Shown: one piece after another, positions 7,141 to 61,577 of the stretch
Layout of the letters: each line of letters starts with the position of its first letter
Numbering within the stretch: position 1 is the stretch's first letter
Assembly (NCBI GenBank): GCA_013334765.1
Contig: JAAXWW010000002.1
Coordinates: forward strand, 21,453-85,452
Length of the DNA: 64,000 bases
DNA from: Candidatus Moraniibacteriota bacterium
GTDB lineage: Bacteria; Patescibacteriota; Minisyncoccia; Moranbacterales; UBA2206
Reading direction: 5' to 3'
The notes under the pieces: model-generated
Told to the model about the DNA's origin: nothing
What the model saw: only the letters and a program-made list of their open reading frames with translations
Database searches by the model: none
Position numbers and translations under genes: made by a program

Positions 7141-7611
7141 CTATTTCCTGTCTATGAAAAGCGTCCCGTCCAAGTGGTCGATTTCGTGCTGAAGAGCTCT
7201 CGCCAACATCCCTTCGGCTTCTATTTCGATTTTATCTCCCTCTTTCGTTTCAGCGTGCACTTTGACCTTCTTGGATCTTTTGATCGGTATGAACTCTCCA
7301 GGGAAAGACAGGCATCCCTCTTCCATGACTTCCTTCCTGAGCGATTTGGAGACTATTTTCGGATTTATCAATATGAAAGTCTTCCTTTCCATTTTAATGA
7401 CGCAGAGACGCAGGTTTTCCCCGACTTGCGGAGCCGCGAGACCTAGACCGTTATTGGCTTCCAGCGTATCGAGCATGTCGAAGATGAGCTTCTTGATCTT
7501 GGGATCAGTTGGGTCTTTTATCTTCTTGTTCTTTTTCCGGAGTATCGGATCCGGATAGGTGATTATGGGCAAATCCATTAATTTATTGTTCGGCTTGTTA
7601 TTTCCTGCCAT
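7141..7611 (-). CDS. def: peptide deformylase
   Basis: GLAAPQVG, EGCLSFPG and HEIDHLDG motifs. The start at 7611 overlaps the priA stop (TGATG coupling). An alternative start at 7578 (MDLPIITYP) is possible. Confidence 0.85.
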   Translation of the reverse strand: MAGNNKPNNKLMDLPIITYPDPILRKKNKKIKDPTDPKIKKLIFDMLDTLEANNGLGLAAPQVGENLRLCVIKMERKTFILINPKIVSKSLRKEVMEEGCLSFPGEFIPIKRSKKVKVHAETKEGDKIEIEAEGMLARALQHEIDHLDGTLFIDRK

Positions 7612-9635
7612 CAGATTACGGATATCGGATCGACATCGATGATCCATCCTGCCGGAAGCCATTGCAATGCCTTCCTGAGAGCATCGGGCATCTCTTTTTC
7701 GAATCTGACGATTATCTGACTCCTGAATCGTCCGCGCACTTTAGGAACGAAACTTTCTTGAGACTCGGAAACTTTTATACCATCGATTCCTAGGAGGACC
7801 TCAGCAATTCTTTTCGCTTCGGCATCAGCCTTGTCTTTTCTGAAATCTTGGAAAACCAGCTTGATGAGGCGACCGAACGGAGGAAGGGCAAGCGCCTTCC
7901 TTTCCTTGAATTCCTTTTCATAGAAAGAATCCGGATCCTTTTTCGCTATCAGCTTGAGCAGCCTGTTTTCAGGATGATATGTCTGGATGATCACGCGTCC
8001 CGGATATTTGGCTCCCGGTCGCGAGGTGCGGCCAGCCACCTGCATAAGCAGGTCAAAAGCCCGTTCTTCTGCCGAAAAATCAGGCAATGTCAGCATATTG
8101 TCTGCGTCTATGATACCAATTAAAGCGACATTCGGCAAATCCCAGCCCTTGGAAATCATCTGGGTCCCGATGAGGATATCCGCCTCATGATCCGAAAATT
8201 TCCGATAGGCCTCTTCATGGGCATCCTTCCCCTTGAGCTCTTGGCTATCCGCCCGCATGACGCGAGCTCCTGGAAAGAATTCCTTGATTTCCTTTTCCAC
8301 CTTCTGAGTCCCGAGCCCTACGTTCTTGAAAACGATGCCCTTGCACTTCGCGCACTTCGGAGTGATGGAGGTCCTGAAGCTGCAATGCAAGCATCTATAT
8401 TCTCCTGAATTTTCATATACCAGCGCCCGATCGCATTTGGGACATTTGAGAACCGTCTTGCAGGCAGCGCAGACCGAGAAGTTGCTCATTCCCTGGCGAT
8501 TGATGAAAAGGATCGCCTGCAAGCCGTATTTGAGGGCATAGGAGATTTCGGATCTCAATTTTTTGGAAATCGAAGAGAATACCGGCTGTTGCTGCCTTTG
8601 ACTGCCATATGATCTGTTCTGCCATCTTTCACGGCGCATATCGACCAGTTCCATGGTCGTTTTCACCGCTTCCGATCTGCTATTGGGTATTTCAAGATCG
8701 GGGATGACCAGCAATCCGCTTTTTCCATTCCTGGCTGAATGATATGAGACGACGCTCGGAGTCGCCGAACCGGAAACTATCTGGCAGTCATGGATGCGGG
8801 CGATTTCCAAGGCGGCAGTCCTGGCATCATAGCGCGGATTCATGTCCCACTGCTTGAAGGAAATATCCTGCTCTTCATCGATCACGACCAGCCTGAGATT
8901 CCCGAACGGAGCGAACACTGCCATCCGGGTCCCGATGATTATCTTCGCTTCGCCCGATCTTATGCGCTTCCAGTTGTCATAGAATTTCCCTTTGGAAATA
9001 TTGCTGCTCAAGACGACAATCTCATCTGAATCGAAATATGCCCCATAGCGCTCCAATGCCTGCGGGGTCAATGTTTTTTCCGGCAGGAGAATCAGGAACT
9101 GACCATCCTTGTACTGCTTTTTTAATTCAAGGATGGAATGGATATATACCTCGGTTTTCCCGGAACCTGAGGACCCGAAAAGCAGATATGCGGCATGTCC
9201 CTTTTTCCTGTCCGATATTTCCGACACGGCAGAGTGCTGTTCCTTGGTGAGTTCTATTCCTAGCTTGCTGATCTGCGAAGCAGCTTTCTTTTTTTCTTTC
9301 AGGCTCCTCTTCATTATTTTCGGCACGAAATTCTTCATGACGATTCCAAGAGGGGAGATATAGTATTCGGAAATGAATCGCGCCAATTCCATCTGCTCCG
9401 CCGTCAGAAAATCCTTTTCGATGACATTCCCTATCCTCTTGAGTTCCATCCCGCCAGTCCGTTCGAAATCAGCCGCGCTGTCGATGACGATTCCTTCGAT
9501 CTTCCTTCCAGAGAAGGGAATACTGACCAATGTCCCAGGCGATAGCTTCTCATTGCCCAAGTAATAGAAAAACTGATCGCGCATGAGCGATATCCTAATA
9601 AGCGGAACGACGGAGATGATGAATTTGTCAGGCAT
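7611..9635 (-). CDS. priA: primosomal protein N' (replication restart helicase)
   Basis: Walker A GSSGSGKTEVY, DEEQD box, Cys4 zinc-binding insert (CKTVLKCPKCD...CLHCSF). Confidence 0.9.
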   Translation of the reverse strand: MPDKFIISVVPLIRISLMRDQFFYYLGNEKLSPGTLVSIPFSGRKIEGIVIDSAADFERTGGMELKRIGNVIEKDFLTAEQMELARFISEYYISPLGIVMKNFVPKIMKRSLKEKKKAASQISKLGIELTKEQHSAVSEISDRKKGHAAYLLFGSSGSGKTEVYIHSILELKKQYKDGQFLILLPEKTLTPQALERYGAYFDSDEIVVLSSNISKGKFYDNWKRIRSGEAKIIIGTRMAVFAPFGNLRLVVIDEEQDISFKQWDMNPRYDARTAALEIARIHDCQIVSGSATPSVVSYHSARNGKSGLLVIPDLEIPNSRSEAVKTTMELVDMRRERWQNRSYGSQRQQQPVFSSISKKLRSEISYALKYGLQAILFINRQGMSNFSVCAACKTVLKCPKCDRALVYENSGEYRCLHCSFRTSITPKCAKCKGIVFKNVGLGTQKVEKEIKEFFPGARVMRADSQELKGKDAHEEAYRKFSDHEADILIGTQMISKGWDLPNVALIGIIDADNMLTLPDFSAEERAFDLLMQVAGRTSRPGAKYPGRVIIQTYHPENRLLKLIAKKDPDSFYEKEFKERKALALPPFGRLIKLVFQDFRKDKADAEAKRIAEVLLGIDGIKVSESQESFVPKVRGRFRSQIIVRFEKEMPDALRKALQWLPAGWIIDVDPISVI

Positions 9636-12987: not shown

Positions 12988-14253
12988 ATGCAAAAAAATA
13001 GAAAAACAAACCGAATATTTTTCTCCGGAATCGCGATGACTGGAATAGTCCTATCGGCGCTATATTTTTCAACATTCTCATTCGCAAATGCATCATTGTC
13101 TTTCAATTGCGATGACTATGAGGGAGACATGAAAGACGAATGCGAAGAGAAACAGAAAACTGCCAGGACACTGGAAAGCATAATAAAACTGAAGGAAAAA
13201 CAAGCCGATGTCATCACGACGCAGCTTGATACCATAAACAAGCAACAAGAAAAGAATGTTTCAGACCTTCAGCTTACAAAAAAAACGGTTGAGGATCTCG
13301 CAAGAAAAATAAACGATCTCGACCGCGACATAGCCGACAAAGAAAATCTCATACAGTCGCAAAAAAAACTTCTCACCGGGCTGATGCAGTCATACTATGA
13401 ATATGACCAGCAAGGAACCCTGGATGTTGTTTTGGCTGATCAGGATTTCTCGACGACCTTCGCCCAATCGGATAATATCGAACAGTCAGAAATGAAGGTC
13501 TCCGACATATTGAACACGATAAAGGAAGCCCGCCAGGAATTGCTCCAGGAAAAATCAGATATTTCCGAAAACAAAGAGAAACATTCCGAGATGAAAGAGA
13601 ATCTGGAAAAGAAAGGATTGGACCTCCAATATACCGAAGACCAGAAACAGAAACTGCTTGGACAGACCCAGGCTGAAAAAGAGAAATACGAAAAGCAATT
13701 GAATGATGTCCGCAATGAAATCTATGACCTGGAATCGAACAAAAGCGTTGACTATGGAAACATACCAGCAGCCAAGGGCGGATATTTCGATTATCCCGTT
13801 TCGAAGCCTTCCATAACCCAAAGCTACGGATGCTTGCAGAATTCATTCGCAAAAGCATCCTATCCGGCGTGCAACGGAGGGAAAGGAGGATTCCACAACG
13901 GATTCGATTTTGGAAGCAATAGCGGCTCGACGATATTCGCCGTAAAAAGCGGAAAGGTCATAGGTTCAGGAAACAATGGAAGATATGCCTATGGGCAATG
14001 GATTGCGATCGATCATGGCGACGGCCTAGTGACACTATACGGGCATCTAAGCAAAAAATACGTTTCAAAGGGCGATCAGGTCGATGACGGAGAAAAAATA
14101 GGAATCATGGGAAACACCGGTTATTCGACCGGAACCCATCTTCATTTTTCAGTTTTCGACAAAAAAAGCTTTGAAACCGTAGAATCAACTAAAGTCGATG
14201 GATTGATACTTCCGACTGGCGCCAGCGTGAGCCCGGGAAGATATTTGAAATAG
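12988..14253 (+). CDS. M23-family peptidoglycan endopeptidase with coiled-coil (EnvC-like)
   Basis: N-terminal TM, long coiled-coil, C-terminal LytM motif HNGFDFG...YGHL...GNTGYSTGTHLHFSV. Confidence 0.8.
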   Translation: MQKNRKTNRIFFSGIAMTGIVLSALYFSTFSFANASLSFNCDDYEGDMKDECEEKQKTARTLESIIKLKEKQADVITTQLDTINKQQEKNVSDLQLTKKTVEDLARKINDLDRDIADKENLIQSQKKLLTGLMQSYYEYDQQGTLDVVLADQDFSTTFAQSDNIEQSEMKVSDILNTIKEARQELLQEKSDISENKEKHSEMKENLEKKGLDLQYTEDQKQKLLGQTQAEKEKYEKQLNDVRNEIYDLESNKSVDYGNIPAAKGGYFDYPVSKPSITQSYGCLQNSFAKASYPACNGGKGGFHNGFDFGSNSGSTIFAVKSGKVIGSGNNGRYAYGQWIAIDHGDGLVTLYGHLSKKYVSKGDQVDDGEKIGIMGNTGYSTGTHLHFSVFDKKSFETVESTKVDGLILPTGASVSPGRYLK

Positions 14254-14385
14254 TTTCAAAATACCGAAAAAAACAATCAGCCTTCCCCTATCAAAAAACT
14301 AATTTCAAGAGGGGATAGCCAGACGGGAAATTCAAGACACATATACCCCCGATTGGTATTATCAAAACAGACCCAAAGAAACCAA

Positions 14386-14420
14386 ACAAGCGACTCCTTA
14401 ACCAATCGCTTGTTTTTTTT
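14386..14420 (+). terminator. putative terminator downstream of M23 peptidase gene
   Basis: 7-bp stem acaagcg / cgcttgt plus T8 run. Confidence 0.4.
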
Positions 14421-14891
14421 ATTTTCTAAAAAATATTATTTGCATGCACATAATTTTATTTCATATTTTTTATTTTCATCAAAATAATTTCAAGAAAATA
14501 TTTTTTCGAATCGATGATCGCTTTTTGTCCATTCATGTCATCGGATTCACAAAAACAATGATTCCTGAAAAATCATCAAAAAACGACCTCAAATTTTGAG
14601 CTCTAAGCGTCTTTGAAAAATATGGACATACATCTATGTATCTGTATTTGATCGATTCTGGAAAAAAATCAAAGCATTTTATTTTTGAAATAAAAAAAAA
14701 TAAAAAAATAATATAACGACAGCTAATAGGTTAAGAGTAGAGGAATGAAATAAAAAAATATTTTTTATTATCTGCGTATTAAAAAACAATCTGTTCTGAA
14801 AAAATAAAATACGGATAGGGAATAGCGGGTTCAAAAGACGCCGAGGCTCAAATAGGCGTATATATGGGAATAAGCCCTTTTTCTGAAATGC

Positions 14892-14925
14892 ACAGTGTCG
14901 TAAAAGATACATTGTGCGACACTGT
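14892..14925. repeat. perfect 9-bp inverted repeat (hairpin) in AT-rich island
   Basis: acagtgtcg ...16 nt... cgacactgt. Confidence 0.5.
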
Positions 14926-15112
14926 ATATATTTCCGCAGGGACAACTCCCCGCTTATTTTCTTCCTATTTTCGAACTCAATAATACCTTCGGAAATATTC
15001 TCCTCGCTCCTCTATTCCTCATATAAAAAAAGCGATTCAAAAAAAATAATACTCTTCTTCATCTATTCCTGCCTCCGTCTGTTATCCTCGTATTTTAAAT
15101 AGTTTTCTTTAT

Positions 15113-15938: not shown

Positions 15939-16319
15939 TTATTTTTTCTTCCGATAATCCTCTATCGCCGCGTGCAATGCGTCGCTGGCCAGGTTGGAGC
16001 AATGCATCTTGATCGGTGGCAGTCCGCCAAGCGATTCGGCTACCGAATCCCTTGAGATTTTCATCGCTTCATCGATGGTTTTCCCTTTTGCCATATCAGT
16101 GACCATCGATGAGGTGGCAATCGCGCTGGCGCAGCCAAGGGTTTCGAACTTGATATCCGAAATGAACTCCCCTGCCGTCTTATCCTTCTTGACCTTGATA
16201 TATATCTTCATCAAATCGCCACAGACCGGATTCCCGACCATGCCGGTTCCGCTCGGGTTCTTGATGACGCCCTGATTATGAGGGCGCGTAAAATGCTCTA
16301 TGACTTTTCTTGAATACAT
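15939..16319 (-). CDS. nifU: Fe-S cluster assembly scaffold NifU/IscU
   Basis: NPVCGDLMKIYIKV, ETLGCASAIATSSM, MHCSNLA: three conserved Cys of the U-type scaffold. Confidence 0.85.
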   Translation of the reverse strand: MYSRKVIEHFTRPHNQGVIKNPSGTGMVGNPVCGDLMKIYIKVKKDKTAGEFISDIKFETLGCASAIATSSMVTDMAKGKTIDEAMKISRDSVAESLGGLPPIKMHCSNLASDALHAAIEDYRKKK

Positions 16320-16355
16320 ATAGTTTGTACTTATTTAAATACTTACCTGTTTCAT

Positions 16356-17612
16356 TTAGTGGCAAGCGCAGCTGTCAGCCTCGCCTTTCTTGTTATCGTA
16401 ATATTCTTCCAGTATATCTCCGGAAACCTTCCTCAGCTTTCCGACAACTTTCTTGAGCTTCTCGATGAACATCTCGATTTCCCTTTTCGTCGTGTGCCGG
16501 CCGAGCGTCACCCGGAGCGATCCATGAGCGTCTTCGTGCTTGAGCCCGATAGCGAGAAGCACATGGGACGGATCAAGCGAACCTGACGAGCAAGCCGAGC
16601 CGGTGGAACAGGCAACGCCTTCCATGTCGAGATAGAGAAGCAGGCTCTCCCCTTCCGTGTCGCGGAAACTGAAATTGGCATTGTTGGGAGAACGCTTTTC
16701 CGCCGAACCGTTGAGGCGCGTTTTGGGGATTTCTTTCGTGACGCGTTCGATCATGTAGTCTCTCAGGAGTTCCATCCTTTTTATGTCTTTCTTCTGGTTC
16801 TTTTCGACAAGCCTGATGGCCTGCCCAAGACCCACGATTCCGGGAGAATTGAGCGTCCCGGCCCGCTTTCCGGATTCCTGCTCTCCCCCATCCTGAACCT
16901 GCTTTATCCTCGTTCCTTTCTTCACATACAGCGCTCCGACGCCTTTCGGGCCATATATCTTGTGCGCTGACATAGACAAAAGATCAACCCCGATATTCCC
17001 GACGTTGCAATCGAAATAGTTGACTGCCTGCGTGGCATCGGTATGGAACAAAGGATATGCTTTGTCTTTCGAAGCATTCTTCTTTTCATTGATAATTTTC
17101 CCTATCTCGGCAATCGGCTGAACCGTCCCGATTTCATTATTAACATACATGACCGAGACCAGGATAGTGTTTTCCTTGATGGCCTCTTTCACGTCTTTCG
17201 CTTTGACTATCCCGTCGCTATATACCGGCAAATACGTCACTTCGGCAATCCCTTCCTTCTCCAGATTCTGACAGGCCTTCAGGATGCAGCTATGTTCGAA
17301 CTGGGTAGTGATGATGTGCGGCTTCCTGACCTTATTGCTTTCGTCTCGAAAATATGCCCGGATAACGCCCTTTATCGCCAGATTGTTCGATTCCGTCGCG
17401 CCGCTCGTGAAGATTATCTCCTCAGGCGCCGCGTTGAAAAAGCCGGCCAGGATCTTGCGCGATTCACCGACCGCTTCGGCCGCTTCCTGCCCGAATGAAT
17501 GAAGCGAAGAAGCATTGCCAAACTTTTCCGAAAAATACGGCAGCATTGCTTCCAGCACTTCCGGATCAACCGGAGTGGTCGCAGCATGGTCAAGATATAT
17601 TCTTTTTGGCAT
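16356..17612 (-). CDS. nifS: cysteine desulfurase (class V aminotransferase)
   Basis: IYLDHAATTP start, PLP-lysine region SMSAHKIYGPKGVGALY, active-site SSGSACSSG. Start placed at 17612 to avoid overlap with iscR. Confidence 0.9.
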   Translation of the reverse strand: MPKRIYLDHAATTPVDPEVLEAMLPYFSEKFGNASSLHSFGQEAAEAVGESRKILAGFFNAAPEEIIFTSGATESNNLAIKGVIRAYFRDESNKVRKPHIITTQFEHSCILKACQNLEKEGIAEVTYLPVYSDGIVKAKDVKEAIKENTILVSVMYVNNEIGTVQPIAEIGKIINEKKNASKDKAYPLFHTDATQAVNYFDCNVGNIGVDLLSMSAHKIYGPKGVGALYVKKGTRIKQVQDGGEQESGKRAGTLNSPGIVGLGQAIRLVEKNQKKDIKRMELLRDYMIERVTKEIPKTRLNGSAEKRSPNNANFSFRDTEGESLLLYLDMEGVACSTGSACSSGSLDPSHVLLAIGLKHEDAHGSLRVTLGRHTTKREIEMFIEKLKKVVGKLRKVSGDILEEYYDNKKGEADSCACH

Positions 17613-17620
17613 ATTTTTTT

Positions 17621-18004
17621 TTAAATTAATTTGCTTAATCTTATTCCAAATAATGTTTCCCTTATCTTGGCGTTGAGCGTTCCCCAGACAAGGCTCGAGG
17701 AGCATTTGCCGCTCATGGCACAGCCTTCATGGTCGCACTTGGAAACGAGCGGGCCTTCCAGGACTTCGACTATTTCCCCTACTGAAATGGCTGCCGGTTT
17801 TTTCGAAAGCACATATCCCCCGTTCTTTCCTTTGCTGCTTTCAACCAAGCTGCTTTTTCTCAGATCCCCCACGATGCGTTCGAGATATTTCATGGAAATA
17901 TTCTCTTCGACGGATATTTCTTTGATATTCTTTTTTTCCGGATAGACCCTGGCTAGATTGACCATGGCGCGCAGCCCGTATTCCGCTTTGGTGGAGAATT
18001 TCAT
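17621..18004 (-). CDS. iscR: Rrf2-family transcriptional regulator (IscR-like, Fe-S binding)
   Basis: N-terminal HTH KAEYGLRAMVNLA. Three clustered Cys (CDHEGCAMSGKC). Confidence 0.8.
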   Translation of the reverse strand: MKFSTKAEYGLRAMVNLARVYPEKKNIKEISVEENISMKYLERIVGDLRKSSLVESSKGKNGGYVLSKKPAAISVGEIVEVLEGPLVSKCDHEGCAMSGKCSSSLVWGTLNAKIRETLFGIRLSKLI

Positions 18005-18043
18005 TATATATAATCCTACTCTTTTAGTATGCTTTAATGTTAC

Positions 18044-18071
18044 AAAAAGACGCCTGACTTGTCAAGCGTCT
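18044..18071 (-). terminator. terminator between ABC exporter gene and iscR
   Basis: 6-bp GC stem agacgc / gcgtct flanked by an A-run and a T-run (bidirectional). Confidence 0.4.
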
Positions 18072-18098
18072 TTTGAAGGCTTATTTAAAGCAATACCA

Positions 18099-19829
18099 TT
18101 ACACAGAAATCTGCTGCAGCTCGCTCAGTTTCTGATAGACTCCGCCTTTTTCGAGAAGCTCCTTGTGGTCTCCTGATTCGACGATGCGTCCGTTTTCAAT
18201 GACCAGGATCAGATCAGCCTTCCTGATGGTGCTCAAACGATGGGCGATGACGAAAGTCGTCCTGTTCTTCATCACTTCCTGGAGCGCCTCTTGAACATAT
18301 TTCTCCGATTCGCTATCAAGCGCGCTGGTCGCTTCGTCAAGGATGAGGATCTTCGGATCGCGAAGGATCGCCCGAGCTATCGCCACTCGCTGCTTCTGCC
18401 CGGTCGAAAGCTTCACGCCTTTGTCTCCGACCACTTGGGAATATTTCTTTGGAAAAGACATAATAAAATCATGGCAATTGGCTGACTTGGCAGCCGCGAT
18501 AATCTCTTCTTCTGTCGCATTCATCTTGGAATATGAGATATTGTTCCTGATAGTGTCATTGAAAAGAGCAATCTCTTGCGGCACGATCGCGATCTGCCTT
18601 CGAAGATCTCCAAGCCTTATTTTCCTCGTATCGATCCCATCAAGCATCACTTTCCCCTTGCTAGGGACGTTATAGAGAGAAATCAGGTCCACCAACGTGC
18701 TTTTCCCCTCTCCGCTCTTGCCGACAATCGCTATCATCTGTCCAGGTTCAGCTTTAAATGAGATGTTTTCCAGAACAGTTTCTTTGTCATATGAAAAGCT
18801 GACGTTTTTGAACTCAATCTCGCCTTTGCAGCTTTCGAGAGCTATGGCATTCGGATTATCATAATCCTCCGTCGCTTCGGAAAAAATCCTGTCAGCCCGC
18901 TCAATAGTCACCAAGCTTTCTTGGAACTGCTTATACCGGCTGCCAAGGCCGGAAATAGCGGTGGTAGCATAGCCGACATATCCCAGTAGCATGATGAATT
19001 GCCCAATAGTTATTCTTCCGATACTGACAAGATACATCCCGGCAGAAAACAATGATAGGAAACTTATAGCATAGATGAAATCCTGCCAAGAAGAAACCTC
19101 AGACCATAATCCCAGTTGTTTTATATGGGATCGCCTTCCTTTTTTGAAATTGCGGATATTGTTGCTACATTCGAAATCTTCCGCCACATTCGATTTGATA
19201 CTGATGATGTTCTGCGTCCGATCGAAAATATCGCCATATGCTTTCTCATGGATCTTGTTCATTTCCGTCTGGCATTCAATGACCGGCTTGGTCTTTTTCA
19301 CGGTAGCCCAGAAATATGTCAGGGTAAAAACGACGTATATCGCTGCCAATATCCAATCGATCCAAGCGATCACGGCAAAAGCCAGGAATGAAGTCAGCAA
19401 GTTAGGCAATATTTCGAAAATCCCTTCGGAAGACAAATCAGCTATTCGCATGTCGGCCCGAGTAAATCGTTCCAATAACTCGCCGATTTTCTGTGATTTA
19501 TGAAAGGCCAGTGGTAAGCGAGACAAGCGATCGACTGATTTAACAGTCAGGTCAGTTGCCACTTGGTATCCGATGTCCCAAGAACGTCTTTCCCGAATTC
19601 GTCCAAACCAACTGCCCATGAGGCTACCGGCTGTCCAGACTGCCAGAAGAACAAGCACTGATCGCTCAAAGAAAATTCCCTTCGTCACGATATCCACCAC
19701 GCGGCCATAAACTACTGGCAAAACCAATTGGATCGCATTCTCCAACACGACAAAAACAGCCGTCGCATATATGGCTTTCTTATACGGCTTCAGGTATTTT
19801 ATGATCGGTTTGAGTTTTCCGGTTTTCAT
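18099..19829 (-). CDS. ABC transporter, fused permease/ATP-binding (MsbA-like exporter)
   Basis: Six-TM N-terminal domain. Walker A GKSGEGKST, signature LSTGQKQRVAIARA, Walker B ILILDEATSALD. Confidence 0.85.
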   Translation of the reverse strand: MKTGKLKPIIKYLKPYKKAIYATAVFVVLENAIQLVLPVVYGRVVDIVTKGIFFERSVLVLLAVWTAGSLMGSWFGRIRERRSWDIGYQVATDLTVKSVDRLSRLPLAFHKSQKIGELLERFTRADMRIADLSSEGIFEILPNLLTSFLAFAVIAWIDWILAAIYVVFTLTYFWATVKKTKPVIECQTEMNKIHEKAYGDIFDRTQNIISIKSNVAEDFECSNNIRNFKKGRRSHIKQLGLWSEVSSWQDFIYAISFLSLFSAGMYLVSIGRITIGQFIMLLGYVGYATTAISGLGSRYKQFQESLVTIERADRIFSEATEDYDNPNAIALESCKGEIEFKNVSFSYDKETVLENISFKAEPGQMIAIVGKSGEGKSTLVDLISLYNVPSKGKVMLDGIDTRKIRLGDLRRQIAIVPQEIALFNDTIRNNISYSKMNATEEEIIAAAKSANCHDFIMSFPKKYSQVVGDKGVKLSTGQKQRVAIARAILRDPKILILDEATSALDSESEKYVQEALQEVMKNRTTFVIAHRLSTIRKADLILVIENGRIVESGDHKELLEKGGVYQKLSELQQISV

Positions 19830-19919
19830 AATAATAAGCCCATTTTATCACCTTTTTGGCTTATAGTAAAGGAAATCTACCTCGAAATCTATCTATTTTT
19901 GATGCCTGCCATGTCGCCA

Positions 19920-19948
19920 TTGACATAATATGTTTTTTCTGCTATCAT
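19920..19948 (+). promoter_or_regulatory. promoter for small gene at 20002
   Basis: TTGACA-17 nt-TATCAT. Confidence 0.4.
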
Positions 19949-20001
19949 AACGCGATGCCTGATTTCAGCATCAAAAAAACATCAAGAAAAGGAGCTCCCA
20001 G

Positions 20002-20226
20002 ATGAGCCAAAAAGGGCGTCTCAACCGTGAAGTAACAACCCACGAATGCAACTGGCTCAAGGAAGACCTTCCTAAAGGTCTGAAAGTTCACAAGTTCAAT
20101 GGGTACACCTATGGGTGCATCGAATCCGGAGTGGCCGTCACCATAAAACCCTGGTGGCACTGGATTCTTTTTTGGCGTAAACCTCCTTTCTTCGAGGTTC
20201 CGTCCGACGCCGTGGGTTGGAAATAG
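20002..20226 (+). CDS. hypothetical small protein (74 aa, His/Cys/Trp-rich)
   Basis: AAGGAG RBS 7 nt upstream. Own promoter and terminator. Confidence 0.45.
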   Translation: MSQKGRLNREVTTHECNWLKEDLPKGLKVHKFNGYTYGCIESGVAVTIKPWWHWILFWRKPPFFEVPSDAVGWK

Positions 20227-20248
20227 CCTCCCGCACAGCCATCCGCAA

Positions 20249-20290
20249 GCCGCTACCTACGAATCAACGATTCGCAAGGGGCGGCTTTTT
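20249..20290 (+). terminator. bidirectional terminator
   Basis: gccgc...cgaatc/gattcg...gcggc nested hairpin plus TTTTT. Confidence 0.5.
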
Positions 20291-20298
20291 AATATAGT

Positions 20299-20916
20299 TT
20301 ACAAAGACAGTTTTTCAGATAAGAAATTCTCTACTCGTCTGTATATTTTTTCATGTCCTTTGGCATTCGGATGCAATCCATCTGACAAATCTTCCTTTGT
20401 CAAAACATCCCACAAAGGAATAAAATCCAAATCGTATTTTTTGCAAATATTTTCAATCTCATCATTATACCTTTTCATATCCTCATTTTCCCAATACTCG
20501 TTTTCTGACCATGGCTTGGTTTTTTCTTCGTCAACAATCATGAGTCCGGTGAAAACAATATCGTTTGAATATTTCTTGGATATTTCGACAATCTTTTCCA
20601 GATTACTCCGATATGAATCGAATGGAACTCCGACATTATCCTTAGTGTCTACATAGACAGGATCGTTCGATCCGATTGAAAATATGAGGGTATACTCTTC
20701 GGGTTCGATTTTGTTGAATTTTTCAATATCGCTCTCAATCGTTTCTAATACTCCCGCGGTATTGTTAGACGAGACTGACAAATTGTAAACGCCAATCCTC
20801 TTCCCTTCGCTGAAAGTGTCCAGATATCTCGTCTTCAATCTCTCAACCCATCCGCCCTTTTCATCATCGAACGCGCCCCAAGATATGCTGTCACCGAATA
20901 TTAGAATCTTTTTCAT
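20299..20916 (-). CDS. SGNH/GDSL-family hydrolase (lipase/esterase)
   Basis: Block I IFGDSIS, block III GSND, block V DGLHPN. Confidence 0.8.
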   Translation of the reverse strand: MKKILIFGDSISWGAFDDEKGGWVERLKTRYLDTFSEGKRIGVYNLSVSSNNTAGVLETIESDIEKFNKIEPEEYTLIFSIGSNDPVYVDTKDNVGVPFDSYRSNLEKIVEISKKYSNDIVFTGLMIVDEEKTKPWSENEYWENEDMKRYNDEIENICKKYDLDFIPLWDVLTKEDLSDGLHPNAKGHEKIYRRVENFLSEKLSL

Positions 20917-20925
20917 AATGTTATT

Positions 20926-20953
20926 GGATGTAAAATCGAATTATCCTTTCACT
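20926..20953 (-). repeat. conserved 3-prime-end element, copy 1 (NUDIX gene)
   Basis: Plus-strand reading ttggatgtaaaat...ttcact. The TGA stop lies inside ttcact. Confidence 0.4.
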
Positions 20954-21389
20954 GCCTCAATCTTTCCCCATACTCGCCAATCGATTCCCTGACCGCAGGT
21001 GACAGGTTATCCTTACTCAATGCTTCTTCTATCGTGAAATATTCCAGCTTCTGACCTTCGTTCAATTTCAATCCTTCAAGCGATTGATCGGTCTTCGCAA
21101 GGAAAACGAAAAGTCTGATCGTTTCGGTTTTCTTGTCGCCATCACTCCTGGTTGCATATGTGACCATCCTGCTTCCCATCTCCTCAATATCATAAACGCA
21201 AATATTCGATTCTTCTTGAAGCTCGCGTTTCAAAGCTTCGATCGACTGCTCGCCTTCTTCGATGCCGCCACCCAGAAGACCATACATACCCGGGTTCGGA
21301 ATGGTAGGCTTATTATCCCTTAGAACGAACAGGTATTCGCCGAGATTCTCGTTTCTTATGAAGACCTTGGCACCGTTTTTGATTGCCAT
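20949..21389 (-). CDS. NUDIX hydrolase
   Basis: Nudix box GGGIEEGEQSIEALKRELQEESNI. Confidence 0.75.
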   Translation of the reverse strand: MAIKNGAKVFIRNENLGEYLFVLRDNKPTIPNPGMYGLLGGGIEEGEQSIEALKRELQEESNICVYDIEEMGSRMVTYATRSDGDKKTETIRLFVFLAKTDQSLEGLKLNEGQKLEYFTIEEALSKDNLSPAVRESIGEYGERLRQ

Positions 21390-21477
21390 ATGGAAAAATA
21401 AGTCTTATTTATGACAGCATTTATGTGATTTGAGTGAAAGAAAAGATTCAACCTTTAAAAATCTATCTGCACGCTTT

Positions 21478-22044
21478 TTATTGAACTTCATACATGCTGT
21501 TGTCGGCAAATCTTTCCTGCCAGCTTCTCAGCTCATCGAATATTCTATCGTCAAAATCATCCGGTTTGAATTTTAAGATGGCGTTGGCGTTCTTTACGCA
21601 GTGGTTTTTCAATTCATTCTCGTTGTTTTGGCTGGAATACCATTTGAAGCTGTCAATAATATCAGCCGTTTTGACAATGAGAGCGTCTTGCCCGTTTTGC
21701 ACGCATCTTTGAATCAGTTCATTCGTCTTTTCCATCTTGTCCGCAATCGTATCATCCTTAGTACTCGCAAAAACCAAGCGGACAACATTGTCACCGAATT
21801 CATCCCTTAATGATTGTTCCTCAACATCAGACCACTCGATTGCGTCGTGCAGAACGCCAGCCAAAACAATATCTTCCGAATAACCGTTTTCATACAAATA
21901 CACGCCGACGCGTATATCGTGGAACATCACAGGCTTTCTGCTGTTTTCATCCGACGGCGGCATATGTTCCGACAGAATCCGCACGGCTTTTTCAAATTTT
22001 ATGCTAAGTGATTTTGACATGAAGCATTCAATAGACTTTACCAC
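21478..22044 (-). CDS. HD-domain phosphohydrolase
   Basis: H...HD metal-binding motif (FHDIRVG...VLHDAIE). Confidence 0.6.
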   Translation of the reverse strand: MVKSIECFMSKSLSIKFEKAVRILSEHMPPSDENSRKPVMFHDIRVGVYLYENGYSEDIVLAGVLHDAIEWSDVEEQSLRDEFGDNVVRLVFASTKDDTIADKMEKTNELIQRCVQNGQDALIVKTADIIDSFKWYSSQNNENELKNHCVKNANAILKFKPDDFDDRIFDELRSWQERFADNSMYEVQ

Positions 22045-22357
22045 CCAATGGTATTTCTTTGTCAGGACTCAGTAATACGCATTCGTTTTCAGCATCGGGA
22101 ACACCCAGTGTAAGCACTTCAGAGATATTTTTGCCGATTTGCTTGGGTGGAAAATTGAGTATCCCAATGATGTTTTTGCCAATCAGCTCTTCGGTGGAAT
22201 AGTTTATCAACCTGGCGCATGATTGCTTTTGACCGATTTTTTCACCGAAATCTATAATGATTCTGTGTGTCGTATATTTGGCATTTTCGATCCGTTCCGC
22301 TTTAACTATCTTGCCTATTCTGACATCGATTTTACTAAACTCTTCGTATTGAATCAT
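22028..22357 (-). CDS. csaA: tRNA-binding protein (CsaA/Trbp111-like OB-fold)
   Basis: KIDVRIGKIVKAERI and LGVPDAENECVLLSPD are typical of the MetRS C-terminal-like tRNA-binding domain. Overlaps the HD gene by 17 nt. Confidence 0.7.
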   Translation of the reverse strand: MIQYEEFSKIDVRIGKIVKAERIENAKYTTHRIIIDFGEKIGQKQSCARLINYSTEELIGKNIIGILNFPPKQIGKNISEVLTLGVPDAENECVLLSPDKEIPLGGKVY

Positions 22358-22413
22358 ATGTTTTATGATGAAAAATTTGGTCGATAAAATTTTACTTTCC
22401 TTTTGAGCCGCAT

Positions 22414-22443
22414 ACTCAGTGTTGTCGGATGTAAAAATTCACT
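22414..22443 (-). repeat. conserved 3-prime-end element, copy 2 (cupin gene)
   Basis: tcagtgttgtcggatgtaaaaattcact. Confidence 0.4.
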
Positions 22444-22801
22444 TCTCATTCTTGTCTATCTTGTTGTTCGGTATGCTAGGAGTCCTTACGGAAACAGTAA
22501 TGGTTGGCTCATATACTTCGAGGATAGCTTCGGTTACATTGTTTCTCAGAAAAATAAAATCGCCATCGCTCAGTACGGAATCTTCACCATCCAACTGCCA
22601 CTTCAATTTTCCCTTGATGACAATGCAGACTTCCGTGCCATGCGGATGATAATGCGGCGGATAAGCATCACCGGGTTTCAGCGTGTCATACTTCACTTCC
22701 AGCTCAGAATTTTTTTGAATGGAATCATCAGGAAAAAACTGCCCGCAAAGCCAGCCTTTCGTTTCTGTATAATTTCTAACGTTATCAACCTTATATCTCA
22801 T
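22439..22801 (-). CDS. cupin-domain protein
   Basis: PPHYHPHGTEVCIVIKGK: cupin motif 1 with His ligands. Confidence 0.6.
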   Translation of the reverse strand: MRYKVDNVRNYTETKGWLCGQFFPDDSIQKNSELEVKYDTLKPGDAYPPHYHPHGTEVCIVIKGKLKWQLDGEDSVLSDGDFIFLRNNVTEAILEVYEPTITVSVRTPSIPNNKIDKNEK

Positions 22802-23049
22802 AGAAATGTGATAAATTACAGAACCGGATGTTTTATGTTAGGCGATGTAGCAAAAAATTTTATTCAACATAATTATAAAAAGCAAATTTAAAAAAGAAAA
22901 AGAATTTTATTTCACATAACGTATCCAAATATGAGAAGTTTTTGTCCGCTTCCTTATTATATATCAATAGAAGAAAAGGGCGAAAATTTGGGTTGAGAAA
23001 AATTTGCTTTCCTTGTTAATATAATTGTGCAAATTTTTTGAACCTCATA

Positions 23050-23092
23050 TTCGGTGTTGGACGATGTGAATAATATTTTTTAATTTTTCACT
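23050..23092 (-). repeat. conserved 3-prime-end element, copy 3 (P-loop kinase gene, more divergent)
   Basis: tcggtgttggacgatgtgaataat...ttcact. Confidence 0.35.
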
Positions 23093-23622
23093 TCATTATA
23101 AAATGCTATTTCTTTTTTCATTTGCTCGGCTATAATTTCAGGCTTAGCATGGGAAAATATTTTGATATCACCAAGCTCTTTATAAATCGGAAAGCGTTGA
23201 ATAAATTTTGTTTTTTCTCTGTCTTCCTTCAAGCCAAAGCCCCTTGAAAGTTGTCTTTTAACGACGATTTCCGCACTCTCATCTAAAGACTTTGATGGCA
23301 AAAGTAAAACGGAAATTCCTTGGTCTTTCAAAGTTTGTTTATGTTTCAAAGTTAGTTCATCCATATTCTCATGAATCAAAAATCCAGAGGACAGAGAAAA
23401 AACAAAATTTTCTAAATGTTGGCCCAAAATCTCATAGAATAACTTGGAGTTCTCGAGGCAATATTTTTCATAACCTAAGTTGTTGATATAAGTACCAACA
23501 TTTTCAACGCGTTTGCAAAATTCCAAATCTAAATCGATGAAATTATAGCCGAGCAAATTCGCTAAAATTTCTCCGCACGTTGACTTACCCACGCCACCTG
23601 GACCAATTATAAATATTTTCAT
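23080..23622 (-). CDS. P-loop NTPase, shikimate-kinase-like small kinase
   Basis: IIGPGGVGKST Walker A followed by DLD. AroK/gluconokinase-like size of 180 aa. Confidence 0.5.
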   Translation of the reverse strand: MKIFIIGPGGVGKSTCGEILANLLGYNFIDLDLEFCKRVENVGTYINNLGYEKYCLENSKLFYEILGQHLENFVFSLSSGFLIHENMDELTLKHKQTLKDQGISVLLLPSKSLDESAEIVVKRQLSRGFGLKEDREKTKFIQRFPIYKELGDIKIFSHAKPEIIAEQMKKEIAFYNEVKN

Positions 23623-23818
23623 AGCGGGAAAAAAGAAATAGCAATCATTAGAAGAAAAATTTAAAAATATTATTTATTTCGCCCAACTCTTTCATACGCG
23701 AAGTGTTTTCGCATATCATGCCCGACACCTCGCTAGTTCCAAAAATAACAGCTTAAATATAGCATAAAACAGACATAATAACCAACTTCGGCGGCTGAGC
23801 CTGGAAGCAAGGCTCCAA

Positions 23819-24961
23819 ATGCGATATACTGGGAATATGCGCATATCATATTCGTCATTCGAGACATATAACAACTGCCCCCTGAAATACAAGTTCCAGG
23901 AGATCGACAAGATCAGGACTCCAAAATCCAAGGAGGCCGTTTTCGGTTCCGTCATCCATGGAACCATGAAATTCATCCACACGCCCGGCATCCTCTCCCC
24001 CACCATGGAGCAGACCATGGAGCATTTCTCCAATTCATGGAACCCGGCCGTTTTCGATTCGGAACAGGAAGAACGTTCCGCCTTCGCGCAAGGCGTCAGG
24101 ATCATTCAGGACTACTATAAACGCAACCGGCCCGAAGATTTCAATATCGTCAATCTCGAGTCCCGCTTCGCCATCGAGATCGGAGAAGAGGGCGGAAAGC
24201 ATATCGTTTCCGGGATCATCGACCGCATCGACCGCACGGATGATGGCTTTGAGATCATCGACTACAAGACCGGCAAGAAGATGCCGACCCAGAAGGATAT
24301 CGACGAGAACGTCCAGCTGACCGTCTATTTGCAAGCCTTCCTTTCGCAATATCCCGAAGAAGCCAAAAACCTCAGCAAGCTCAAAGTCAGCCTATATTTC
24401 CTGAAGCACGGCGTGAAACTGAGCGCATTCCGAACCGAAGAGCAATTGAAAGCCAACGAGAAGATGTTCCTCGAGACCATAAAACTCATCGAGGAAGGCA
24501 AGTTCGAACCGAACATCTCGCCGCTTTGCGACTGGTGCGGCTATCAGAAGAACTGTCCGATGTGGAAACACAAATTCAAAGAAGAAAGGAAAATCGACAC
24601 CGAAGAAATCAACTCTTCCATCCAGGAATATATCGACTTGAAATCCGCCATGACCATCACCAAGGAAAGGCTCGGCAAGCTTCAGGAAGATATCATGCAG
24701 TATATGGAGCAGGAGGAAGTGGAAAGGGTCTTCAGCGAGAACGGCATCGTCTCGAAGACGCTCCGGAAGACATATAAATATGACGACGCCAAGATAAAGG
24801 AACTGCTTGAGCCGATCGGGAAATGGAAGGATGTCCTCAAACTCGATCCGACAGCCCTCAAGAATATCTTTCCCGTGCTTCCCGGCGCCGTCCAGCGGGA
24901 AATCGAAAAAGCCAAAGTCATCGACAAGGAAAGCGCCAGCTTGAATGTGAGGAAGAAATAG
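23819..24961 (+). CDS. Cas4-like / RecB-family PD-(D/E)XK nuclease with Fe-S cysteines and a roughly 130-aa C-terminal extension
   Basis: N-terminal Cys (YNNCPLKY). Catalytic core IIDRIDR...EIIDYKTGK...QLTVY. C-terminal CDWCGYQKNC three-Cys cluster. Confidence 0.6.
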   Translation: MRYTGNMRISYSSFETYNNCPLKYKFQEIDKIRTPKSKEAVFGSVIHGTMKFIHTPGILSPTMEQTMEHFSNSWNPAVFDSEQEERSAFAQGVRIIQDYYKRNRPEDFNIVNLESRFAIEIGEEGGKHIVSGIIDRIDRTDDGFEIIDYKTGKKMPTQKDIDENVQLTVYLQAFLSQYPEEAKNLSKLKVSLYFLKHGVKLSAFRTEEQLKANEKMFLETIKLIEEGKFEPNISPLCDWCGYQKNCPMWKHKFKEERKIDTEEINSSIQEYIDLKSAMTITKERLGKLQEDIMQYMEQEEVERVFSENGIVSKTLRKTYKYDDAKIKELLEPIGKWKDVLKLDPTALKNIFPVLPGAVQREIEKAKVIDKESASLNVRKK

Positions 24962-24996
24962 TCTCATGAAAAAAGGCTCGGCATCCGTGACGGAGG

Positions 24997-25488
24997 TTGA
25001 GCCTTTTGAATAATAAGGATATGCCCCTAGAAAAAATCGTTTCAAAAATCAAAAACTTCCTCTTGAAGTTCTTCCTGATCGACGACACGCCGCACAAGGT
25101 CGCAGCCGGGGCGGCATTGGGGGTTTTCTGGGGAATCATGCCAGGCGAAGGGATTGGGACGACCATCGTCACAGCGGCGATCTTCCGATTCAACCGGCTA
25201 TCCGCGGTCACTGCCGCTTTGGCGACGAACACCTGGACATCTTTTTTCATCCTGCCTTTGGCCGCAGTCATCGGAGGATATATTTTCAAGACCGATCCAG
25301 GAAAGCTGATCGACGATTTCAAGAATACCTATCACCTAGACATTAGATACTTTTTCACTGAAGACATACTGTTCGGGCTTATCATCCCACTCCTCGCAGG
25401 TTTCGCTATCGTATCGATCGCGATTTCCATGCTCGTATATTTTTCGGTCTATTTCCTGTTGAAGTATAGGAAGATAAGATTCCGATAA
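24997..25488 (+). CDS. DUF2062-like membrane protein
   Basis: 163 aa, 3-4 TM helices. Gene starts 36 nt after the nuclease gene. Confidence 0.45.
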   Translation: MSLLNNKDMPLEKIVSKIKNFLLKFFLIDDTPHKVAAGAALGVFWGIMPGEGIGTTIVTAAIFRFNRLSAVTAALATNTWTSFFILPLAAVIGGYIFKTDPGKLIDDFKNTYHLDIRYFFTEDILFGLIIPLLAGFAIVSIAISMLVYFSVYFLLKYRKIRFR

Positions 25489-25592: not shown

Positions 25593-26039
25593 TTATTTGC
25601 ACCCTTTCCCGGCGACCCTGCCCTGCCCGATCGCTTCCTGCTCAGAGGAAAAGCAGACCAGATTTTCAGGCTTGATCCTTTTCGCCCATTGGCAAGTCGG
25701 CGGATAGTATTTGTCCGAACTTTTGCTGCCAACATAGGCGCAACCGGTTTTCACTGGAGAGGCACTCCCAGCACTATTCTGGAGCGTTTCAGCGGCCTTA
25801 TTGCCCGTGTCCGGTGTCTTAGCGGTTTCGCAACCCAAAACGCTTCCTGGGTCATTTTTAGGGCTTTCGGGTGTTTTTTCAATCACAATCGGGCTCGATT
25901 TGGCATTTCCAGCCTTCAGATAGCCCGCCTCAAAGGAAACCGCCCCCACCAAAAGAAGCCCCACAACCAGGACAATCTTGTGTTCGTATTGCTTGAAAAA
26001 CTCTTTTATTTTTTCTTTCATTGACTTATTATTAAACAT
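25593..26039 (-). CDS. membrane-anchored protein with C-terminal Ada-like metal-binding domain
   Basis: N-terminal TM. C-terminal YYPPTCQWAKRIKPENLVCFSSEQEAIGQG...GCK resembles the Ada Zn-binding domain pattern. Confidence 0.4.
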   Translation of the reverse strand: MFNNKSMKEKIKEFFKQYEHKIVLVVGLLLVGAVSFEAGYLKAGNAKSSPIVIEKTPESPKNDPGSVLGCETAKTPDTGNKAAETLQNSAGSASPVKTGCAYVGSKSSDKYYPPTCQWAKRIKPENLVCFSSEQEAIGQGRVAGKGCK

Positions 26040-46053: not shown

Positions 46054-46054
46054 A

Positions 46055-48106: not shown

Positions 48107-48161
48107 GTGCCGATTATTTTATGATGAATTAATATGCCACGACTGCGAACATTCCAGTCCC

Positions 48162-61576: not shown

Positions 61577-61577
61577 G

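Follow-up and report, generated by a model that had tools for sequence, protein, structure and literature searches.

A conserved Cas4-like nuclease with an additional C-terminal domain is a backbone gene of Parcubacteria-type CPR and a likely housekeeping DNA-end resection enzyme

Is the Cas4-like nuclease gene carried by this 64-kb stretch of DNA (the window) an orphan, perhaps kept for defence, or does it belong to the housekeeping equipment of its host lineage? An earlier note, made from the letters alone, had described an orphan Fe-S nuclease with an extra C-terminal domain, paired with a DUF2062 membrane protein, and had left both DNA-end processing and anti-phage activity as possible roles. 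The two open reading frames concerned, 23819..24961 (380 aa) and 24997..25488 (163 aa), lie on the plus strand.

The nuclease gene likely starts at ATG 23837 rather than at the in-frame ATG 23819, with which the earlier description began, since nearly all homologues recovered by the protein search are 374 aa long and open with MRISYS; the 374-aa numbering is used throughout (Table 1). The match is far beyond chance, given 2303 homologues (top E 6e-232) and a set of invariant residues. PDDEXK_1 (PF12705) aligns to residues 8-247 over its whole length (profile 1-247/247) at E 5e-36, with 125.3 bits over a Pfam cut-off of 22, and the protein, a nuclease of the PDDEXK_1 / COG2887 'RecB family exonuclease' type, has the RecB-type restriction-endonuclease-like fold. 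The AF2 model was built from a 139-sequence alignment (pLDDT 87.6), which was used instead of the single sequence because the latter gave a pLDDT of 42. Among the 139 aligned homologues (alignment A3), C14, E108, D129, D142-Y143-K144, Q160, Y164, C231, C234 and C240 are all invariant. The catalytic E/D/DxK/QxxxY residues are likewise invariant in a more divergent set of 35 homologues (alignment A2), where C231 and C240 never vary but a few members lack C234.

These results bear out the assignment to the Cas4/AddB-type PD-(D/E)XK nucleases, and every motif that had been quoted for it (YNNCPLKY, IDRIDR, EIIDYKTGK, QLTVY, CDWCGYQKNC) is present in the translation. The description of the catalytic region holds for the invariant D129, DYK and QxxxY, but not for an ExK: as read from the alignments, motif III is D142-x-K144, the DYK of EIIDYK, and E139 is conserved yet is not the E of any ExK. 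In AdnAB chain 6ppu_A, Cys14 aligns with the cysteine of the CPL motif, the cysteines of CDWCGYQKNC align with those of CanCpvrssC, and the catalytic residues find their counterparts as well. The four Fe-S-type cysteines, one N-terminal and three C-terminal, are placed for binding a predicted 4Fe-4S cluster. Scans for promoters and terminators at the locus gave nothing exceeding background, and the tRNA and Rfam scans gave no matches.

Table 1. Coordinates of the nuclease gene, its domains and motifs, and neighbouring features in the window.
Feature	Position	Strand	Basis
Nuclease gene, 374 aa plus stop	23837..24961	+	Homologue length and MRISYS start
PD-(D/E)XK domain (PDDEXK_1, RecB/AddB/Cas4-type), aa 1-248	23837..24580	+	
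Cys14 codon, N-terminal ligand of the predicted 4Fe-4S cluster	23876..23878	+	Invariant in 139 homologues
Catalytic motifs E108, D129 (GIIDRID), D142-Y143-K144 (EIIDYK), Q160xxxY164	24158..24328	+	Invariant in alignments A2 and A3
C231-x2-C234-x5-C240 cluster (CDWCGYQKNC)	24527..24556	+	Invariant in A3
C-terminal domain, ~125 aa, DUF7376 / Gam/Gp157-like resemblance	24581..24958	+	AF2 secondary structure and profile matches
DUF2062 membrane protein gene, probable start ATG 25021	24997..25488	+	PF09835
NifU-IscS-Rrf2 Fe-S assembly operon	15939..18004	-	tblastn synteny
Insertion between Rrf2 and nuclease	18099..23622	-	Pfam, synteny, GC

The extra C-terminal domain is a genuine feature of the family, as homologues with as little as 25% identity retain it and R297, F299 and W330 are invariant. 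In the AF2 model (pLDDT 67-91 over this part) it opens with a long helix (aa 255-293), continues through a beta-hairpin and three short helices, and closes with a strand. DUF7376 (PF24091) is matched by 29 of the 30 members compared (best E 3e-9), PF22709 by 23 of them at E<0.1 (best E 1e-6), and Sipho_Gp157 (PF05565) by five. The window protein itself stays below threshold for the first two, scoring 23.5 bits with DUF7376 and 14.5 bits with PF22709 (cut-off 27 in each case), while the relative P0130 reaches 34.4 bits with DUF7376 over profile positions 78-204/219 and relatives score 26.1-26.2 bits with PF22709. By eye, the sequence of Mu Gam offers a similar order of elements (long helix, hairpin, short helices, strand). 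For a direct comparison, a Mu Gam sequence confirmed to be 100% identical to phage Mu gam was used, and hhalign gave a probability of 3.4% for the C-terminal domain against a six-sequence Mu Gam alignment and of 0.05% against Mu Gam as a single sequence, which lends homology to Mu Gam no support. A structure search returned no solved structure matching the domain. In phages, gam and gp157 genes flank annealing-protein modules (PMC8093625). The C-terminal domain probably serves to dimerise the protein, or to bind DNA ends or a partner.

The nuclease was found in at least 483 species-representative genomes, with one copy per locus retrieved. The genome search used the close alignment A1, and the named genomes are therefore mostly Moranbacteria; the best 80 species genomes are Moranbacteria/Parcubacteria. 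Around the gene, Parcubacteria-type CPR share a conserved order (GluRS, M23 peptidase, NifU-IscS-Rrf2, nuclease, L27, CTP synthase, L9), which is kept from Moranbacteria to Azam-, Sung- and Pacebacteria. Over the 80 species, median identity is 68.6% for the nuclease, 63.0% for GluRS, 62.8% for IscS and 45.6% for L9; judged by these sequence identities, constraint on the nuclease is stronger than on any of the other three. Its GC content (0.50) equals that of IscS, L27 and CTP synthase. The impression that the gene is locally GC-richer is hence correct only against the low-GC genes upstream of it. Since it is present in at least 483 species, shares its gene order and core-gene GC, is highly conserved and has no relatives on viral contigs, the nuclease is a vertically inherited housekeeping gene of the Parcubacteria-type CPR backbone, here in a Moranbacteria-like genome, and not an orphan in an island of small hydrolases.

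As for gene order in itself, its conservation may merely reflect slow rearrangement of genomes in these lineages.

The island in question is a genome-specific, low-GC insertion, separate from the nuclease unit. It holds genes for an ABC transporter, a GDSL/SGNH hydrolase, NUDIX and HD proteins, a tRNA-binding domain protein, a cupin and a shikimate-kinase-like P-loop protein. Not one of the six small genes occurs in any of the 84 related loci, and the ABC gene occurs in 10. Genes of the insertion have a GC content of 0.33-0.46, whereas the core genes on either side have 0.50, and the nuclease stands on the conserved side of the boundary. Beyond the insertion lies the Fe-S assembly operon, which most close relatives have upstream of the nuclease as its divergently oriented neighbour: by tblastn synteny, 63 of 78 loci have Rrf2 upstream, 40 of them at a distance of no more than 700 nt. 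A functional link between this operon and the nuclease was considered and rejected, as the linkage is missing in the group of 60-63% identity and in the Azam-, Sung- and Pacebacteria loci.

Downstream, a DUF2062 gene does follow the nuclease (PF09835, E 2e-21, 77.1 bits against a cut-off of 27.4, residues 18-161 on profile positions 4-144/147), yet the proposed pairing is facultative. The gene lies downstream in 40 of 74 related loci, immediately adjacent in 31; none of the four distant relatives examined has it beside the nuclease, and one lineage has a GIY-YIG gene standing between the two. An obligatory nuclease-DUF2062 operon is therefore rejected, the linkage being present in about half of the close relatives and in none of the four distant ones.

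What, then, does this conserved gene do? We consider it fairly likely that its product is a stand-alone, metal-dependent Fe-S DNA nuclease of the RecB/AddB/Cas4 branch which serves housekeeping DNA-end resection; stand-alone DNA-end processing, one of the two roles suggested earlier, is thus the best reading. Structurally the protein comes closest to the AdnA/AddB nuclease modules, to ACE1 and to Cas4, and AdnAB chain 6ppu_A is the top PDB match by sequence and by structure alike; the NCBIfam addA/addB models match partially and far under their cut-offs. Fold alone fixes neither role nor polarity, because ACE1, which is among these closest structures, is a defence ssDNA endonuclease. We draw the link to recombination because both domains match phage exonucleases: PHROG 69 'exonuclease' aligns to residues 7-293 (E 3e-33), DUF2800 (PF10926) to residues 9-300 (37.5 bits, cut-off 21), and Foldseek aligns both domains with phage proteins over about 400 columns. 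Moreover, the C-terminal domain recurrently matches Gam/Gp157-like profiles. A link to a helicase is suggested because the sister clade, in a rough NJ tree, is formed by CPR proteins in which the nuclease domain is fused to UvrD. These UvrD-PDDEXK_1 proteins (~953 aa; conserved in WWE3, Saccharimonadales and other Patescibacteria) carry a nuclease domain up to 40% identical to that of the window and represent the nearest non-identical architecture.

In such a role, the 4Fe-4S cluster would clamp one end of the nuclease domain to the other, and the enzyme may thread a free DNA end and then degrade one strand. By analogy with Cas4 SSO0001 and the AddB/AdnA nuclease modules, the polarity would be 5'-to-3'. 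The resulting single-stranded tails could be used to mend broken chromosomes and stalled forks through RecA or through annealing, a job equivalent to that of the AddAB/AdnAB nuclease modules and of phage recombination exonucleases. The most likely collaborator would be a separately encoded helicase of the UvrD/PcrA type. Some results, however, count against break resection. Pfam detects no helicase domain in the 374-aa protein, no helicase is a conserved neighbour in 88 loci, and no RecA, SSB or annealing-protein gene is one in the related and distant loci; PriA (7611-9635) is the sole helicase among the scanned ORFs of the window. The sub-threshold Gam/Gp157 scores of the window protein and the low hhalign probability of the six-sequence Mu Gam comparison weigh in the same direction. 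The earlier note had set its orphan nuclease against a housekeeping RecB/AddB context with a partner helicase, and the evidence goes part of the way towards the latter, in the AdnA/AddB structural matches and the UvrD-fused sister clade, but not as far as a helicase partner at this locus.

Perhaps the nuclease serves some other housekeeping DNA transaction. It might trim flaps or 5' ends at replication forks in the manner of Dna2/Exo5/MGME1, or it might process DNA that the cell takes up for nucleotide salvage or for transformation, perhaps working at the membrane together with DUF2062. We regard such a role as rather unlikely. The DUF2062 linkage is lost in about half of the close and all four of the distant relatives and is interrupted in one lineage by the GIY-YIG gene, no competence genes are adjacent to the nuclease, and the top sequence and structure matches come from break-resection modules (AdnA, AddB) and from phage recombination exonucleases.

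That the protein is a stand-alone nuclease against phages or plasmids, which attacks the ends of invading DNA by itself or together with an unlinked partner (for instance an Argonaute) in the manner of ACE1, seems to us improbable, although several observations point that way. PADLOC reports matches to Cas4, DruK and an Argonaute-associated Cas4-like nuclease, ACE1 boosts pAgo interference (PMC12094033) besides being structurally close, and UvrD-Cas4-like fusions have been tied to defence contexts (PMC5704561). All the PADLOC matches are nonetheless partial and weak, the best (E 4e-10) being to generic Cas4 models. Among about 28 of the roughly 65 window ORFs scanned with Pfam or PADLOC, there was no cas or defence gene; pAgo, restriction-modification and other defence genes are also missing as conserved neighbours, and the variable genes adjoining the nuclease encode hydrolases and a transporter. 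Defence genes are typically patchy, fast-evolving and island-borne, and the nuclease shows the opposite pattern, with its fixed syntenic position and high conservation in at least 483 species.

It is very improbable that the gene is a recombination exonuclease of the DUF2800/PHROG 69 type belonging to a prophage or mobile element next to the inserted island. The PHROG 69 match, the DUF2800 score above the Pfam cut-off, the two-domain structural matches to phage proteins and the variable low-GC insertion directly upstream would all agree with such an origin. Synteny largely refutes it, since the gene has core-gene GC and belongs to the conserved flank of the insertion. In addition, the neighbourhood is free of integrase, capsid and other phage genes, identity to any protein of the phage collection is below 30%, and none of 2.9 million IMG/VR contigs carries a relative. 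An ancient phage origin of the family is possible and compatible with a present housekeeping role. That the protein is a bona fide Cas4 serving, in trans, a CRISPR-cas adaptation module encoded at another place in the genome is more improbable still: despite the four-cysteine Cas4-like architecture and a Campylobacter phage PF12705 protein that affects spacer acquisition (PMC5704561), the Cas4 models score under their curated cut-offs (PF01930, 20.2 against 22.7 bits; TIGR00372, 37.3 against 65 bits and in the C-terminal half only), no CRISPR-like repeat array occurs across the 64 kb, as noted earlier, no cas gene appears in the window ORFs scanned or in the gene tables of related loci, and CPR bacteria, hundreds of species of which have the nuclease, are reportedly near-devoid of CRISPR-Cas (PMC4742961).

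Housekeeping end resection is therefore the reading that we carry forward. A motif-only reading ("orphan Cas4, perhaps defence") can mislead, and here the comparative context turned it into a core gene beside a variable insertion. Should the nuclease indeed have the proposed role, the family would mark the minimal break-resection equipment of ultra-small CPR genomes and would offer a compact Fe-S exonuclease of 374 aa, with an uncharacterised C-terminal module, for study. The split or fused state of UvrD across CPR lineages leads to a testable prediction of the helicase partner. Going further, and only tentatively, Parcubacteria-type CPR might have replaced RecBCD/AddAB by a domesticated phage-style exonuclease, a Cas4-like Fe-S nuclease with a Gam/Gp157-like domain acting as the principal, near-essential break resector, either with no dedicated helicase or with a recruited UvrD/PcrA. 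Our literature search on CPR DNA-repair repertoires and on this nuclease family found nothing specific.

Compared with known systems, the nuclease adds a further member to an already known kind of enzyme, and current ideas are not overturned by it. With AdnAB and AddAB (AdnA in 9np6/6ppu, AddB in 3u44/4cej) it shares a homologous nuclease module, at an identity of only 17-20%. Those proteins exceed 1000 aa and have an SF1 helicase fused or adjacent, whereas the window nuclease has neither the size nor the helicase and carries instead an unrelated C-terminal helix/sheet domain. The CPR UvrD-PDDEXK_1 proteins differ from it in the opposite sense, since they begin with a UvrD/PcrA helicase and have no Gam/Gp157-like domain at the C-terminus. 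From Cas4 (SSO0001 in 4ic1, the type I-C Cas4 in 8d3l, and "solo-Cas4"), with which the four-cysteine architecture is held in common, it is set apart by a larger helical insertion in the N-terminal half, by the extra C-terminal domain and by the lack of cas neighbours. ACE1, which is co-encoded with a long-A pAgo and binds it (PMC12094033), has no equivalent of this C-terminal domain, and there is no pAgo at the window nuclease. It is the phage "RecB-like / Cas4 family exonucleases" of DUF2800 and PHROG 69, for example those of Tsukamurella phage TIN4, Arthrobacter phage KellEzio and Gordonia phage Woes (gp41), that share both the two-domain layout and the size (about 390-400 aa), with an identity of at most 30% to any protein in the phage collection. 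The phage genes sit in replication/recombination modules, such as duf2800-gp2.5-polA (PMC8093625), whereas the window nuclease sits in a chromosomal housekeeping block.

The gene encodes an intact PD-(D/E)XK nuclease of the RecB/AddB/Cas4 branch with a predicted 4Fe-4S site. The motifs quoted in the earlier note are all present in the translation of its longest ORF, and the proposed Cas4/AddB-type nuclease with a further C-terminal domain was borne out: residues 8–247 match PDDEXK_1 (PF12705) over its full length (E 5e-36; 125 bits, cut-off 22), and the remaining domain (residues ~249–374) is kept family-wide. Since homologues are nearly all of 374 aa and start with MRISYS, the ATG at 23837 is the probable start. 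In 139 aligned homologues, E108, D129, R130, D132, E139, D142-Y143-K144, Q160 and Y164 of the catalytic region are invariant, as are the cysteines C14, C231, C234 and C240; these cysteines and the catalytic residues have aligned equivalents in a mycobacterial AdnAB chain (6ppu_A). AlphaFold2 gave a confident model (mean pLDDT 87.6) from the 139-sequence alignment but not from the single sequence. The best structural matches of the nuclease domain only were AdnA (20.9), the Argonaute-associated ACE1 (17.7), Dna2 (16.8), Cas4 (13.6), MGME1 (12.8), RecE (12.2), Exo5 (11.1), AddA and AddB (10.9 and 10.8) and RecB (10.4). It is these invariant motifs, their AdnAB alignment, the confident model and the structural matches that place the enzyme in this branch. 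A protein database search returned 2303 homologues (best E 6e-232), and when representatives of 50%-identity clusters were searched, 6334 clusters matched with E<=1e-3 (168 with E<=1e-30), among them dozens of 370–410 aa that aligned over both domains down to 25–30% identity. The family is uncharacterised, yet already annotated as “PD-(D/E)XK nuclease family protein” or “RecB family exonuclease”.

Features of the window discussed in the text
Feature	Position	Strand	Length or remark
Most AT-rich stretch, between M23 peptidase gene and NifU operon	14001-15000		GC 0.346
Imperfect direct repeats within the AT-rich stretch	14415-14435, 14466-14486		21 nt
Variable hot-spot (Rrf2-nuclease intergenic)	18005-23836		
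Nuclease ORF, longest form	23819-24961	+	380 aa
DUF2062 ORF	24997-25488	+	163 aa, 35 nt after nuclease ORF
Region after DUF2062 ORF, with a gap before L27	25489-26760		gap of 720 nt
ORF with N-terminal membrane helix, Cys-rich C-terminus	25593-26039	-	148 aa
ORF in gap before L27	26087-26467		126 aa
Tandem repeat in gap before L27	26577-26615		14 nt x 2.8
Large ORF	41811-43748	+	645 aa
Four ORFs with N-termini alike	44203-53416		616-683 aa
ORF scanned among these four	46055-48106		PMT/PMT_2 membrane glycosyltransferase profiles
Large ORF	59915-61612	-	565 aa
Large ORF	61578-63884	-	768 aa

The C-terminal domain is predicted by AlphaFold2 to open with a 39-residue helix, followed by a beta-hairpin, then three short helices and, at the end, a long strand, with R297, F299 and W330 invariant in the 139 homologues. 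When this domain was searched alone, 29 of 30 family members matched Pfam DUF7376 (best E 3e-9), one of them above threshold (34.4 vs 27 bits, profile positions 78–204), 23/30 matched PF22709, the “Mu Gam/Sipho_Gp157-like domain of TOTE systems” (best E 1e-6; several members at 26.2 vs 27 bits), and 5/30 matched Sipho_Gp157; the window's own protein scored below threshold with both DUF7376 (23.5 bits) and PF22709 (14.5 bits). Sequence profile and fold searches found no solved structure resembling it. In direct hhalign comparisons, the probability was 0.05% against a single Gam sequence (verified at 100% identity to gam of phage Mu) and 3.4% against an alignment of six Gam members, so that Gam homology is a lead rather than a result. 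Phage gam and gp157 genes stand at equivalent places beside single-strand-annealing modules (PMC8093625). End binding or partner binding is a plausible role for the domain.

The earlier note had described an orphan gene in an island of small hydrolases, which is contradicted by its neighbourhood. A pattern scan that took a single genome for each GTDB species counted relatives in at least 483 species genomes, the best 80 of which (60–76% identity) are Moranbacteria, Parcubacteria or Patescibacteria MAGs. One conserved block holds the nuclease in 80 species loci and four metagenomic loci: GluRS, M23 peptidase and NifU-IscS-Rrf2 (opposite strand) precede it, and an optional DUF2062, a conserved 140–150-aa ORF, L27, CTP synthase, L9, CtpB peptidase, GT2 and LytR follow. 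In relatives at 40–46% identity, from Azambacteria, Sungbacteria, one Pacebacteria MAG and one further lineage, the block is partly kept (GluRS/M23 upstream; L27, CTP synthase, L9 and CtpB downstream), and neither DUF2062 nor the Isc operon adjoins the nuclease in any of these four loci. Median identity across the 80 species loci, which were picked by nuclease similarity and thus mildly bias the comparison, is 68.6% for the nuclease, 79% for CTP synthase, 75% for L27, 63% for GluRS, 62.8% for IscS and 45.6% for L9. Many public MAG records with the Moranbacteria-type block carry the evidently wrong title “uncultured Bdellovibrionales bacterium” (related loci L005, L029, L043–L045, L053, L057, L059, L061, L062, L065, L072–L075, L077, L079, L080, L083 and L084).

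The suggested pairing with a DUF2062 protein (Pfam, E 2e-21) stands only in part. DUF2062 lies downstream in 40/74 loci with enough flank and is directly adjacent in 31/74, and in one Moranbacteria lineage a GIY-YIG nuclease gene of 84–93 aa is inserted between the two (loci L001/L002, 9202–9483); the pairing is therefore a lineage-specific gene order and not an obligate module. Further downstream, the 148-aa ORF, kept beside L27 in 60/84 related loci and with a similar-sized ORF at the corresponding position in Azam- and Pacebacteria, has no Pfam or PADLOC match, and neither has the 126-aa ORF. In relatives, an amino-acid-kinase-family gene (PF00696), absent from the window, lies between DUF2062 and the 140–150-aa ORF; the window instead has the gap before L27, with the 126-aa ORF and the tandem repeat.

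Upstream, 5.8 kb separate the end of Rrf2 (18004) from the nuclease start, holding genes for an ABC transporter, a GDSL hydrolase, a NUDIX and an HD protein, a tRNA-binding-domain protein, a cupin and a shikimate-kinase-like protein. The six small genes occur in 0/84 related loci and the ABC gene in 10/84. The nuclease was said to be locally GC-richer, which holds against the insert genes (0.33–0.46; shikimate-kinase-like 0.33, GDSL 0.375), but its GC of 0.50 equals that of IscS, L27 and CTP synthase (CtpB, 0.51). Because of this core-like GC, and because the insert genes are missing in relatives, the nuclease belongs to the native backbone and the hydrolase “island” was inserted alongside it, at a variable spot. 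Elsewhere the same spot carries inserts of 2–5.5 kb of different content, sometimes with an ABC transporter; at the hot-spot in the window there was no sign of an integrase, a tRNA or flanking repeats. Elsewhere in the window, the three large ORFs lie in a glycosyltransferase-rich region and have no Pfam or PADLOC match. The clustering of the four similar ORFs among GT1/GT2-type genes suggests an expanded glycosylation locus.

Most likely, the protein is a housekeeping, end-dependent DNA nuclease with a predicted Fe-S cluster; of the two roles the earlier note had offered, end processing is the better supported. In organisms with very small genomes, it would prepare DNA ends for recombinational repair by resection, its C-terminal domain supplying dimerisation, end binding or partner binding and a separately encoded UvrD/PcrA helicase possibly collaborating. 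Cas4 SSO0001 and AddB/AdnA modules act with 5′-to-3′ polarity, and the same would be expected here. Alternatively, it may serve another housekeeping DNA transaction, such as flap or 5′-end processing or the processing of imported DNA. An ACE1-like role in defence (ACE1 being the second-best structural match) is less likely: the ~28 of ~65 window ORFs scanned (Pfam or PADLOC) gave housekeeping and cell-envelope genes and no cas or defence model, and PADLOC gave only partial generic matches of the nuclease, to Cas4 and DruK. A prophage gene was rejected, as 2.9 million IMG/VR viral contigs yielded no relatives and identity to any protein of 50,697 phage genomes was <=30%. So was a CRISPR gene: the 64-kb window yielded no repeat array, in agreement with the earlier note, and the Cas4 models stayed below curated thresholds (PF01930, 20.2 vs 22.7 bits; TIGR00372, 37.3 vs 65 bits). 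The tRNA and Rfam scans of the window were both empty. CPR bacteria reportedly lack CRISPR-Cas almost entirely (PMC4742961), and the nuclease is present in hundreds of CPR species.

Among known families, phage “RecB-like/Cas4 family exonucleases” resemble the nuclease across both domains (PHROG 69, E 3e-33; DUF2800, 37.5 bits vs cut-off 21). Foldseek alignments of ~400 columns were obtained with 390–400-aa proteins of Tsukamurella phage TIN4, Arthrobacter phage KellEzio and Escherichia phage PTXU04, and tblastn alignments with Gordonia phages and one Bacillus phage, where replication and recombination genes surround the gene, reach residue 324–344. A 2012 survey of PD-(D/E)XK proteins listed DUF2800/PDDEXK_1 as “RecB-like, probable prophage proteins” (PMC3424549). 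Cas4 phylogenomics of 2017 found solo Cas4-family genes over-represented in CPR and also treated PF12705 proteins in phages and UvrD fusions; the two-domain chromosomal family is not described there (PMC5704561). Some relatives of the nuclease domain are proteins that consist of 2–5 tandem PDDEXK_1 domains only (P0126, P0151, P0136, P0175, P0163, P0169, P0173, P0186; one of 1297 aa with five copies), an unusual chain of Cas4-like nucleases in one polypeptide, and repeats at matching positions in different proteins group together in a rough tree. UvrD-helicase/PDDEXK_1 fusions (~953 aa) are among the nearest relatives of other architecture, with a nuclease domain up to 40% identical, and are strongly conserved in WWE3, Saccharimonadales and other Patescibacteria; the fusion proteins P0221, P0392–P0510, P0204, P0472 and P0484 share 57–89% identity among 120 matches, and some copies (1327–1372 aa) carry an intein (Hint/Intein_splicing) within the helicase domain. 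In a rough neighbour-joining tree without support values, the fusions branch as a sister cluster of the stand-alone family. The sole hint of a possible helicase partner is this contrast between fused and split forms, from which such a partner is inferred.
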